Part shown: one piece after another, positions 22,768 to 35,235 of the stretch
Numbering within the stretch: the first letter of the stretch is position 1
Layout: each line of letters starts with the position of its first letter
From: Candidatus Latescibacterota bacterium
GTDB taxonomy: Bacteria > Latescibacterota > UBA2968 > UBA8231
DNA: 64,000 bases
Assembly: GCA_964291625.2 (NCBI GenBank)
Contig: OZ220089.1
Coordinates: 2,176,001-2,240,000 of the forward strand
Direction: 5' to 3'
The notes under the pieces: model-generated
Told to the model about the DNA's origin: nothing
Database searches by the model: none
The model's input: the letters and a program-made list of their open reading frames with translations, nothing else
Position numbers and translations under genes: made by a program

Positions 22768-25368
22768 ATGCTGGGGAACTACCTGACCACCGCCCTCCGC
22801 CACCTGTGGCGGGAGCGCGGCTACGCGGCGATCAACCTCTTCGGCCTGGCCGTCGGCCTGGCCCTCTGCCTGCTGGTCATCCAGCTGGCCGCCTACCAGC
22901 TCTCGGTGGGCGACTTCCACGACAAGAAGGACCGCATCTACCGCATACTGGGCACCACCTTCTGGGACCGCGACCGGTACACTTTTTCGATGCCGGTACA
23001 GCTTGGACCCGCCCTCGAGGACCAGCTGCCCGAAGTCGAGGAAGGGGTCCGCTTCACCGCGAGCAGATCGACACTGCTCCGGGCAGGTACGAGGGAGGGG
23101 ATCTCGGACAGAGTGCTGACCGCGGATCCCGGCGTCCTTCGTGTCTTCGGCTTTCCCCTTCTGCGAGGTACCCCCGAAACGGCCCTGGAACGTCCGTACA
23201 CCATGGTGCTGACCGAGCCCCTGGCCCGCCGTCTCTTCGGGGAGCGCGATCCGATGGGACAGGTGGTCCGCGTGAACGAGAGCTACGACTGCGAGGTCAC
23301 CGGCATCGTCGGCCCGCCGCCGCCGGGTTCGCTGCTCCAGTTCTCGGCCCTGCTCTCCCTCGCCACGGAGCTCGAGGAGAATCCCGGGATGACCTCCGGG
23401 ATGGTCGTCCACGCCTTCCCCACCTTCCTGCAACTGACGCCCGGCGCCGATCCCGAGGCGGTAGCGGCGCGCATCCCCGGCGTCGTCGAGGCGATCACGG
23501 GAGTGCCTGCGACTCCGGCGACTCCCGTTGCCGGCGTGTCGGTGCAGGTGGTGGGCAAAGCGGGCCTGGGAGACCTGGGGCCGCTTCAGGGCAAGGACAA
23601 GCTCCACGTCTTCGACGGAACGCCTCACGACCACGGAACGCCTCACGACCACCCACATGCAGAGACGCCGGATACCCTGCGACCGACCTCGGTCGTCACC
23701 CTGCCGGTACAGGGAGGGGGGCACCTCCCTCCGAAGGCGCTCGAGCTCCCGCGGCAGGCTGCCGCCGGGAGTCCGCCTCCCTACGTGCTGCAACCTCTCA
23801 AGTCGATCTATTTCGACCCTGAACTACCCAACAACCTCGGAAAAAGCGGCAACTCCACGTACCTGGTGGTGAGCGCACTTCTGGCGGTCGTGATCCTGAC
23901 GATCGCCGGCGTCAACTACGTGAACCTGGCCACGGCGCGGGCCGGGCGGCGGATTCACGAGATCGGCGTGCGCAAGGCCCTCGGCGCCCATCGCGGGCAA
24001 CTGATTCGCCAACTCCTGAGCGAGTCGCTGCTCATGAGCACCGCGGCGACGGTGCTGGGAGCGGCCCTCGCGGGGGCCATGCTCCAGTTCATGCCCGCCA
24101 TCGCGGGATCCGCTTTCGACCTTCCCTCCCTCGACTGGTCGACCTCCACGTACGCGGGGGCCGCGGCGCTGGCAGCGGGGGTCGGAGTGGCCGCGGGGGC
24201 CTGGCCGGCCTGGGTCGTGGCACGGATGCAGCCCACGGCCAACCTGGGCGGGGGCCGGGTAGGCGGCGCGCGCCTGCGCAGGGGGCTGGTGGTGACCCAG
24301 TTCACGGCCACCACGGCGTTGCTGACGATGACGCTCCTCATGTGGCACCAGCTGGACTTCACCAAGGGCCTCCTCCGCGAGAACTCCATCCTGGGGGCCG
24401 ACCCGGAGCAGGTGGTGGTGGTCAGGAACCGCGGCCTCACCGTGGATCAGGCCCGGGCTTTCAAGGCCGAGCTGCTTCAGGACAGCCGCATCGCCGCGGT
24501 GAGTCTCTCCTCGGCGCTGCCGGGCGAGGGCTCGAGAGCGTCGCACATCGTGGAAGGACGGTTGATCGAGGCGTACCAGGTAGATGCGGCCTTCTCCGAG
24601 ATCATGGGCCTGCGCCTGGCCCGGGGACGAGCCCTGACCGACGACCCGGCCGATGCCCGGGCCCTCGTCATCAACGAGACCGCCGCCAAGGTGCTGGGAC
24701 TGGAGGAGCCACTGGGAGAGACGATCCTCACCTGGGGAGACAAGCGCATCGTGGGCGTCCTCGAGGACTTCCACTTCGACGGTCCGCGAAGCGAGCTGGG
24801 GCCGCTGGTCATGGAACAGCTCTATGGATTGGCGGGCGTCACCATCGTGCGAGTCCAACCCGGGCACCTGGACGCGGCTCTCGAGCTGATCGACGAGAAG
24901 TGGGCCGCCTTCGCCCCCTACCGCCCCATTCGGCGCCACTCCCTCGAAGAGATCACCGCCAGGCTCTACTCCGAGGAGTTGAGGGTGGGCCGTGCCCTCA
25001 CCCTCCTCCTCTTCCTGGCCATCGCCGTCGCCGCGGTGGGGCTCTTCGGCATGGCCGCCCACGCCGCCCACGAGCGCACCCGCGAGATCGGCGTGCGCAA
25101 GGTCTTCGGCGCCTCCGCCGGCGGCCTCACCGCCATGATGCTGCGCGACTTCGCCCGGCCCGTGGCCATCGCCTTCGTCCTCAGCGTCCCCGTCGCCTGG
25201 TGGCTCGGCAACCAATGGCTCCACGACTTCGCCTACCGCGTCGAGATGGGCGCCGGCCTGTTCGTGGTCTCGGGCGCCCTCTCCTTCCTCATCGCCGGAC
25301 TGACGGTGGGCCAACAGGCGATGCGGGCGGCCCTGACCAACCCGGTGGAGACGCTGCGCACCGAGTAG
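22768..25368 (+). CDS. MacB/FtsX-family duplicated ABC permease 2 (His/Pro-rich insert)
   Basis: 866 aa, same architecture as permease 1. Confidence 0.92.
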   Translation: MLGNYLTTALRHLWRERGYAAINLFGLAVGLALCLLVIQLAAYQLSVGDFHDKKDRIYRILGTTFWDRDRYTFSMPVQLGPALEDQLPEVEEGVRFTASRSTLLRAGTREGISDRVLTADPGVLRVFGFPLLRGTPETALERPYTMVLTEPLARRLFGERDPMGQVVRVNESYDCEVTGIVGPPPPGSLLQFSALLSLATELEENPGMTSGMVVHAFPTFLQLTPGADPEAVAARIPGVVEAITGVPATPATPVAGVSVQVVGKAGLGDLGPLQGKDKLHVFDGTPHDHGTPHDHPHAETPDTLRPTSVVTLPVQGGGHLPPKALELPRQAAAGSPPPYVLQPLKSIYFDPELPNNLGKSGNSTYLVVSALLAVVILTIAGVNYVNLATARAGRRIHEIGVRKALGAHRGQLIRQLLSESLLMSTAATVLGAALAGAMLQFMPAIAGSAFDLPSLDWSTSTYAGAAALAAGVGVAAGAWPAWVVARMQPTANLGGGRVGGARLRRGLVVTQFTATTALLTMTLLMWHQLDFTKGLLRENSILGADPEQVVVVRNRGLTVDQARAFKAELLQDSRIAAVSLSSALPGEGSRASHIVEGRLIEAYQVDAAFSEIMGLRLARGRALTDDPADARALVINETAAKVLGLEEPLGETILTWGDKRIVGVLEDFHFDGPRSELGPLVMEQLYGLAGVTIVRVQPGHLDAALELIDEKWAAFAPYRPIRRHSLEEITARLYSEELRVGRALTLLLFLAIAVAAVGLFGMAAHAAHERTREIGVRKVFGASAGGLTAMMLRDFARPVAIAFVLSVPVAWWLGNQWLHDFAYRVEMGAGLFVVSGALSFLIAGLTVGQQAMRAALTNPVETLRTE

Positions 25369-35235: not shown

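Follow-up and report, generated by a model that had tools for sequence, protein, structure and literature searches.

How neighboring paralogs can be almost identical in DNA over some segments and strongly diverged over others is the question raised by a tandem array of ABC (ATP-binding cassette) transporter permease genes in a genome of Candidatus Latescibacterota bacterium (assembly GCA_964291625.2, contig OZ220089.1, positions 2,176,001 to 2,240,000; this whole 64,000-nucleotide stretch is referred to here as the window). The original prediction, made from the letters of the window, held that domain shuffling or gene conversion among permeases 2 to 4 preserves the surface that couples to the ATPase while the ligand-facing domains diversify. 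Our analysis indicates that the mosaic is likely the product of segmental interlocus recombination combined with strong purifying selection. Six permease genes lie head to tail on the plus strand at 20382-35235, separated by spacers of ~30 nucleotides (nt), and the numbering used in the prediction is the same as that of the open reading frame (ORF) analysis (P1 to P6). Five further permease paralogs at 37570-50213, among them the frameshifted P10, bring the array to 11 tandem paralogs. A search of the 5.9-Mb genome with P4 gave 16 strong matches, every one of them inside this cluster, and a single weak match (E value, 1.1e-11) elsewhere. Orthologous arrays from three congeners (G002, G006, and G007) were compared with that of this genome (G000) in an alignment of 20 genes, every compared genome being a metagenome assembly. 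The first six genes of the array are as follows.

20382-22739, plus strand: P1, a fused-duplicate MacB-type permease of 785 amino acids (aa), the first gene of the array (ORF, with orthologs in G002, G006, and G007)
22768-25368, plus strand: P2, a permease of 866 aa whose first periplasmic core domain (PCD1) contains a His-rich insert
25399-28056, plus strand: P3, a permease of 885 aa with a twofold 141-bp tandem duplication (47 aa) in PCD1
28087-30429, plus strand: P4, a permease of 780 aa, used for the structure model and as the coordinate reference
30464-32833, plus strand: P5, a permease of 789 aa that belongs with P6 to a more distant clade (P5/P6) and has a lower G+C content at third codon positions (GC3)
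32863-35235, plus strand: P6, a permease of 790 aa whose final ~17 codons have given way to the beginning of another permease gene

The array proteins are type VII ABC (MacB/FtsX-type) permeases in which two modules are fused in one chain, each module running from a transmembrane (TM) helix through a MacB-like periplasmic domain to a three-TM FtsX domain. In all seven of the proteins scanned, Pfam returned the MacB-like periplasmic core domain twice (MacB_PCD, PF12704; E values of 1e-37 to 1.3e-30) together with two stretches of the FtsX-like permease domain (PF02687; 8.5e-19 to 1.5e-28), the values for P1 being 1e-37 and 5e-23, respectively. The AlphaFold2 model of P4, for which 36 aligned sequences served as input (predicted local distance difference test, 82.2; predicted template modeling score, 0.76), begins with an N-terminal amphipathic helix at residues 2 to 15, followed by TM1 (17 to 46), a beta-rich PCD1 (57 to 260), TM2 (276 to 307), a short helix (309 to 317), and then TM3 and TM4. 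The second module repeats this order with TM5 (411 to 450), a beta-rich second periplasmic core domain (PCD2; 462 to 647), TM6 (649 to 683), a short helix (685 to 693), TM7, and TM8, and the chain closes with a C-terminal helix at residues 773 to 778. The short helices between TM2 and TM3 and between TM6 and TM7 occupy coupling-helix positions. When the model was compared with the PDB using Foldseek, the best match was Escherichia coli YbbAP (9ge6_A; E value, 2.5e-19, full length), with MacB (7.7e-14), LolCDE (6.6e-11), a pneumococcal MacB-like transporter, BceAB, and HrtBA also found. In MacB, according to a published study (PMC5985334), TM1 is preceded by an amphipathic helix, the major coupling helix links TM2 to TM3, and a minor coupling helix lies at the C terminus.

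Sliding-window DNA identity along the codon alignment (90-nt windows) bore out the central observation of the original prediction, namely, that P2 to P4 are nearly identical at their ends and in a central block and differ in both periplasmic domains. Identity among the three genes is 90 to 100% over the 5' ~170 nt, the central block covering TM2 and the coupling helix, and the last ~300 nt and is 45 to 88% in the periplasmic domains. In the order P2-P3/P2-P4/P3-P4, codons 1 to 60 gave 93 to 98/91 to 96/90 to 95%, codons 406 to 450 (NYVNL...EIGVRK) gave 93 to 94/93 to 94/91 to 93%, and codons 796 to 870 gave 95 to 100/96 to 98/94 to 98%, with the last windows dropping to 85 to 92%. The low points were 45/68/48% in PCD1 and 50/74/45% in PCD2. 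Both coupling helices with their loops are 98 to 100% identical in DNA among P2 to P4, and for the second the identity extends to P1, at 98%. The spacers between the genes are also alike, and a 3' block, its spacer, and the next 5' block therefore form a continuous stretch of ~550 nt. The blocks concerned are the following.

24966-25578, plus strand: junction block made up of the P2 3' block, a 30-nt spacer, and the P3 5' block (junction alignment)
27654-28266, plus strand: the same junction block between P3 and P4
30027-30643, plus strand: the same junction block between P4 and P5
28937-29066, plus strand: central conserved block of P4, comprising the end of TM2 and coupling helix 1
23879-24008: equivalent central block in P2
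26549-26678: equivalent central block in P3

The patchiness described in the prediction was likewise found, since the nearest paralog switches from one segment to the next. In PCD1, P3 and P4 are closest at codons 106 to 135 (82% versus 66 and 55%) and at codons 376 to 405 (91% versus 68 and 68%). In PCD2, P2 and P4 are closest, with 74 to 88% identity across the domain and 88% (versus 69 and 68%) at codons 676 to 705. A further patch over TM3 and TM4, absent from the prediction, joins P2 and P3 (88 to 94% overall; 92% versus 76 and 73% at codons 466 to 495). All four shared motifs that had been listed (WxASAFRTF and NTIGP.GNPMYL in P3 and P4, GEG.RA.H..EGR and LVMEQLYG in P2 and P4) are present as described in the protein alignment. 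As had been proposed, the conserved blocks do fall on elements that contact the ATPase in MacB-type transporters: in the AlphaFold2 model they cover the N-terminal amphipathic helix, the coupling helices of both modules (TM2-TM3 and TM6-TM7), and the helix at the C terminus, roles assigned from the MacB study (PMC5985334). The low-complexity inserts between PCD1 and TM2 of P2 and P3 differ by repeat copy number. The His-rich insert of P2 carries an 18-bp unit repeated 2.1 times at 23615-23652 (GTPHDH), and its orthologs have other internal duplications and vary in length; the 141-bp repeat of P3 at 26147-26426 encodes two 47-aa units here and one in the G002 ortholog (838 aa).

Silent divergence was measured at 4-fold degenerate third positions of codons with identical first two bases. 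In the conserved blocks, this divergence was 0.188 (interval, 0.149 to 0.235) among the paralogs P2, P3, and P4 and 0.140 (0.105 to 0.178) between G000 and G002 orthologs, a ratio of 1.35 (1.14 to 1.62). In the periplasmic domains, the corresponding values were 0.362 (0.317 to 0.410) and 0.108 (0.084 to 0.132), a ratio of 3.35 (2.65 to 4.22). Silent divergence between paralogs in the blocks is thus about half of that in the periplasmic domains, while the ortholog silent rate is no lower in the blocks. Fisher tests of blocks versus periplasmic domains gave P values of 0.0026, 7e-6, and 0.044 for the three G000 pairs; orthologs of P2 and of P3 did not differ in silent divergence from one region to the other, and those of P4 were more diverged in the blocks (P = 0.014).

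Nonsynonymous divergence (dN) is ~0.02 in the blocks versus ~0.3 in the periplasmic domains. Because the blocks retain a silent 4-fold divergence of 0.19 at a dN of ~0.02, most of the DNA identity there comes from amino acid conservation, and the term "homogenised" applied to the membrane segments in the prediction is too strong. The claim that the periplasmic domains diversify fared no better. Between orthologs of P1 to P4, ratios of nonsynonymous to synonymous divergence (dN/dS) by the Nei-Gojobori method (NG86) were 0.16 to 0.23 for whole genes, 0.10 to 0.14 for the blocks, and 0.22 to 0.38 for the periplasmic domains. The highest values, 0.65 to 0.95, were those of the periplasmic domains of P6 against its orthologs; P6 is truncated in this genome, and its high dN/dS fits decay as well as diversification. 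No sign of positive selection (dN/dS above 1) was seen in the periplasmic domains at the gross level of NG86 per domain, and what was called diversification is therefore weaker constraint.

Trees of individual segments conflict with one another. PCD1 united P1, P2, and the fourth copy of G002 (G002_4; support, 99/99), PCD2 united P2, P4, and G006_2 (97/98), and the trees of the 5', central, and 3' blocks were star-like. In approximately unbiased (AU) tests, the PCD2 clade was rejected by the PCD1 data (P = 1.6e-6) and the PCD1 clade by the PCD2 data (P = 0.019). A cross test of six segments against six trees rejected all 30 off-diagonal trees (P ≤ 0.0113), and the whole-gene tree was rejected by five of the six segments; the informative pair, PCD1 and PCD2, gave log likelihood differences of 135 and 46 (P = 7e-4 and 5e-5). 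A GARD-like search, in which dynamic programming was applied to 703 FastTree likelihoods computed over a 60-nt grid, improved the corrected Akaike information criterion by 1148.5 with eight segments and the Bayesian information criterion by 280 with three, and it placed breakpoints at P4 nt 181, 850, 1273, 1456, and 1941, which are domain borders. The prediction had named congruent per-domain trees and uniform synonymous divergence along the genes as the outcomes contrary to it. The trees are incongruent, and synonymous divergence is not uniform between paralogs, though it is between orthologs; recombination as proposed is therefore supported. Three copies in the congeners are themselves chimeric.

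G002_4: P2-like PCD1, P1-like PCD2, and 3' block of the P2-4 type
G006_5: PCD1 and PCD2 of the P5/6 type, and 3' block of the P2-4 type
G006_2: P3-like PCD1, P2/P4-like PCD2, and 3' block within the P2-4 star

One exchange could be resolved individually. Over ~290 nt of P3 (P4 nt 865 to 1158), the gene is P2-like at 22 of 27 informative sites, while outside this tract its sites mostly match the P3 ortholog (permutation P = 1e-4, with 331 sites considered in total). Ortholog monophyly was rejected for the tract (AU P = 0.039), and the tree of the TM3-4 segment places P3 of this genome (G000_3) inside the P2 group (98/96). This is a lineage-specific, recent conversion event from P2 into P3. In a GENECONV-like longest-run test of the six G000 genes, P2-P3 was significant after Bonferroni correction (P = 0.007; third positions, 0.022), as was P2-P4 at third positions (P = 0.030), other comparisons being nonsignificant after correction. 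The pairwise homoplasy index (PHI) was significant over all positions (z = -6.4 to -15.6; P ≤ 0.001 in 1,000 permutations) and at third positions when orthologs were included (z = -6.1 and -4.7). A second pair farther along the array has a similar pattern. P7 and P10, which are separated by 7 kb and two intervening genes, are 80.5% identical overall, with 57 to 80% identity in the periplasmic domains versus 95 to 99% over the last ~420 nt; their silent 4-fold differences number 6 of 96 in the 3' block versus 84 of 262 in the rest (Fisher P = 9e-8). A 7-nt gap breaks the reading frame of P10.

26563-26856, plus strand: lineage-specific conversion tract in P3 (recipient), with the P2 donor type at 23893-24186
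39580-40035, plus strand: 3' block of P7 (gene, 37570-40035)
~46942-47397: 3' block of P10 (gene, 44921-47397, frameshifted)

We suggest that these patterns probably arose as follows. Purifying selection on the N-terminal helix and TM1, on the coupling helices and neighboring TM helices, and on the C terminus would keep these protein stretches alike. The paralogs would recombine repeatedly, through interlocus gene conversion and probably also unequal crossing-over, with the conserved stretches, including the ~550-nt junction block, serving as homology arms. Such exchanges would reduce silent divergence in the blocks and would also move cassettes (PCD1, TM2-4, PCD2, and the 3' block) between genes, so that each segment would come to have its own nearest relatives. 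The molecular route would presumably be RecA-type conversion, unequal crossover, or both. The periplasmic domains give clear ortholog groups across the genomes, so the cassettes are old and have been stably inherited. Classic concerted evolution was considered and rejected, as paralog states shared within one genome against the orthologs of another are as rare as a control pattern. The rarity of such "concerted" sites indicates that there has been almost no classic concerted evolution since the split of G000 from G002, the nearest congener, and most of the mosaic is older than the split of the four compared congeneric genomes. Array copy number and gene order vary among these genomes. The history of the array is one of birth-and-death evolution with recombination, of which the differing copy number and order, the three chimeras, and the truncated P6 with its pseudogene remnant are the signs.

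Several observations weigh against this interpretation. The silent divergence in the blocks is only about twofold lower than in the periplasmic domains, and conversion must therefore have been too rare or too old to leave identical copies; in the same direction, each of the 14 gene-pair comparisons gave 0 to 3 "concerted" sites per segment, which did not exceed the count for the control pattern. PHI at third positions was not significant for the G000 genes taken alone (P = 0.12 and 0.53). Two AU results were marginal (a second PCD1-like grouping, P3+P4+G006_2, in PCD2, P = 0.056, and ortholog monophyly in S5, P = 0.039), and the AU tests in the 3' block, which are without power, rejected nothing (four P values of 0.16 to 0.41). 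Rejections of the trees of short, star-like segments in the cross test carry little weight because these trees are poorly resolved. In addition, the PHI, run-length, and GARD-like tests are our own implementations, some groups were named after the trees had been seen, and the genome, for which synonymous divergence (dS) was estimated by NG86, has a GC3 close to 90%.

Part of this would be expected if there had been no recombination at all and the blocks of equally old duplicates had stayed alike through stronger selection on protein or codon usage, an explanation in keeping with the contrast in dN between blocks and periplasmic domains, the restriction of silent change by high GC3, and the third-position PHI result within G000. 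It would, however, have to account for the fact that blocks evolve no more slowly than periplasmic domains at silent sites between orthologs (0.140 versus 0.108) and yet are less diverged between paralogs (0.188 versus 0.362), for well-supported topology conflicts among the informative segments, and for the departure of G000_3 from its ortholog to join the P2 group over ~290 nt; we regard it as very improbable. The mosaics might also have been created by metagenome assembly, in which repeated blocks of up to ~550 nt can give rise to chimeric joins between paralogs; all of the genomes compared are of this kind, and public short contigs (Logan) end at the repeated blocks, none spanning the stretch, so that these contigs speak neither for nor against the long-range joins, and regions that they leave uncovered carry no information. 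However, every mosaic gene has a counterpart with the same mosaic in the independently assembled congeners, with 91 to 98% identity along its length (for example, G000_3/G002_3 and G000_4/G002_5/G006_4), and the genome of the window is in two contigs. Pieces without mismatches from run X24 (among them 22905-23919 and 24475-25064) also cross borders between block and unique sequence, although this run is possibly the source sample and thus not independent. We consider an artifact of this sort extremely improbable.

A different reading accepts the exchanges and makes them adaptive, with conversion of the ATPase-contacting parts selected to fit one shared ATPase and the periplasmic cassettes shuffled and diversified to widen the range of substrates or partners. 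The location of the blocks in the model, on the N-terminal helix, the two coupling helices, and the C terminus (roles again from PMC5985334), is in keeping with this, as are the presence in the congeners of a single ATPase gene beside six or more permease genes, the different histories of PCD1 and PCD2, and the existence of chimeric copies. Against it, the periplasmic dN/dS between orthologs of P1 to P4 never exceeds 1, the array ATPase is truncated in this genome and yet P1 to P5 are intact, purifying selection alone already explains the amino acid identity of the blocks, and recombination would be restricted to well-conserved stretches on mechanical grounds alone. Adaptive exchange is thus possible but unlikely. 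A fuller version, in which one small ATPase serves many permeases through an adapter maintained by recombination (the N-terminal helix, the two coupling helices, and the C terminus, with the blocks doubling as homology arms) and PCD1 and PCD2 reassort independently to yield new periplasmic specificities in an uncultured lineage of Latescibacterota, is a speculation that we hold to be rather improbable. Segmental interlocus recombination under strong purifying selection therefore remains the reading that we favor, and under it the periplasmic domains may still set substrate or partner specificity. By analogy with related transporters, the label "ligand-facing" given to them in the prediction may also be apt.

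To our knowledge, several phyla contain large families of paralogous fused-duplicate MacB-type permeases, hardly any of which have a known substrate. If arrays such as this one swap whole periplasmic cassettes at the conserved membrane and coupling blocks, whole-gene trees would mislead, and orthology should therefore be called domain by domain; specificity would lie in two periplasmic domains, with one ATPase-docking surface held in common. The process itself, in which interlocus conversion turns tandem paralogs into mosaics, is well known, with bacterial gene conversion exemplified by tuf, the opa and pil genes of Neisseria, and the omp genes of Helicobacter; what is new is a documented case in this protein family and phylum. 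We found no report of recombination in MacB/FtsX permease arrays among the open-access papers searched. For HMA4 in Arabidopsis halleri, a modeling study attributes the mosaic divergence of tandem paralogs to interlocus gene conversion (bioRxiv 10.1101/2025.10.29.685298). Like such systems, the array consists of tandem paralogs whose identity is patchy and whose trees conflict from segment to segment, with conserved stretches serving as substrates for recombination. It differs in that exchange is slow and mostly predates the species splits, and we saw in it neither an invertase nor programmed switching nor a dedicated silent-cassette donor. Among 24 scanned ORFs, a subset of those in the window, none encoded a reverse transcriptase, invertase, or integrase.

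Among transporters of known structure, YbbP of the E. coli YbbAP-TesA complex (PDB 9ge6) is likewise a single polypeptide with two MacB-type modules (881 alignment columns in Foldseek) and, according to its description (PMC12646458), is paired with a separate ATPase subunit, as the array permeases may be. The sequences are 14% identical, and YbbP is single copy with a TesA partner, whereas the array holds 11 tandem paralogs; a TesA-like gene was not noticed at the array. FtsX and MacB_PCD domains are common to the array permeases and MacB, LolCDE, and FtsEX, and the TM2-TM3 coupling helix and C-terminal helix of MacB (PMC5985334) are matched in the P4 model. In contrast to these systems, the ATPase is unfused and the two halves share one chain in the array, which, unlike MacB systems, has no adaptor or outer-membrane partner; an HlyD-like gene and another ATPase lie 20 kb downstream. 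The ADOP family (TIGR03434) has the same duplicated architecture, length class, and abundance of paralogs per genome; however, P2, P4, and P7 score 235.4, 261.2, and 282.4 bits, below the curated cutoff of 622.3 bits, and the array proteins therefore lie outside this family as NCBIfam defines it.

The region behind P6 shows decay. P6 has lost ~17 codons at its 3' end, where it runs directly into the beginning of a second permease gene (protein alignment, junction DNA, and blastn). The remnant that follows matches the 5' part of P6 at 64% identity over 779 nt, and the alignment contains indels. The whole of 35214-36704, with the P6 fusion, the degraded remnant, and then a truncated ATPase, constitutes a deletion scar.

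35214-35973, plus strand: degraded 5' remnant (pseudogene) of a permease gene (blastn)
36306-36704, plus strand: 3' fragment of the array ABC ATPase gene, residues ~91 to 223 of 224

The ATPase fragment is 95.5% identical to the 3' part of the intact gene of G007. A search of the whole genome recovered the array ATPase only as residues 91 to 223, covering only positions 65 to 136 of the Pfam ABC_tran profile; the first ~90 codons, including the expected site of the Walker A motif, are missing. G006 and G007 have an intact array-linked ATPase, and in G002 the gene is cut by the end of a contig. The next best ATPase in the genome, 53% identical to that of the array, is encoded at 58591-59250 of the window. 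It follows a gene for an HlyD-type adaptor (56588-59250 for the two together), and this pair may represent a separate MacAB-like system and a candidate source of a substitute ATPase. The orthologs of P2 in G002 and G007 each have a 1-nt deletion in the 3' block, which could be sequencing errors.

The window is G+C rich (62 to 76% in 2-kb windows), with values falling to 61 to 64% at 30000-36000 and 42000-46000 and lying at 66 to 76% elsewhere. GC3 is 0.70 to 0.75 in P5, P6, and P9 versus 0.87 to 0.94 in neighboring genes, a difference that may reflect a separate history of these copies, for instance acquisition or a relaxation of codon selection. In public metagenome or sponge metagenome runs from different studies (X1, X3, and X7), we found pieces of 120 to 540 nt that are 95 to 99% identical to P2 to P4; samples of this kind therefore contain close relatives of the organism. 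A gene for a secreted CBM9-like protein (36700-37567), lying between P7 and the fragment of the ATPase gene, occupies the same place as in G007. A fragment of an AbiEii-type toxin domain (135-aa ORF) adjoins an unassigned 226-aa minus-strand ORF at 53202-54252. Upstream of the array, the minus-strand ORF at 17438-19106, which resembles a sulfatase gene, has a translation with a CPSRASILCGRYP-type motif.

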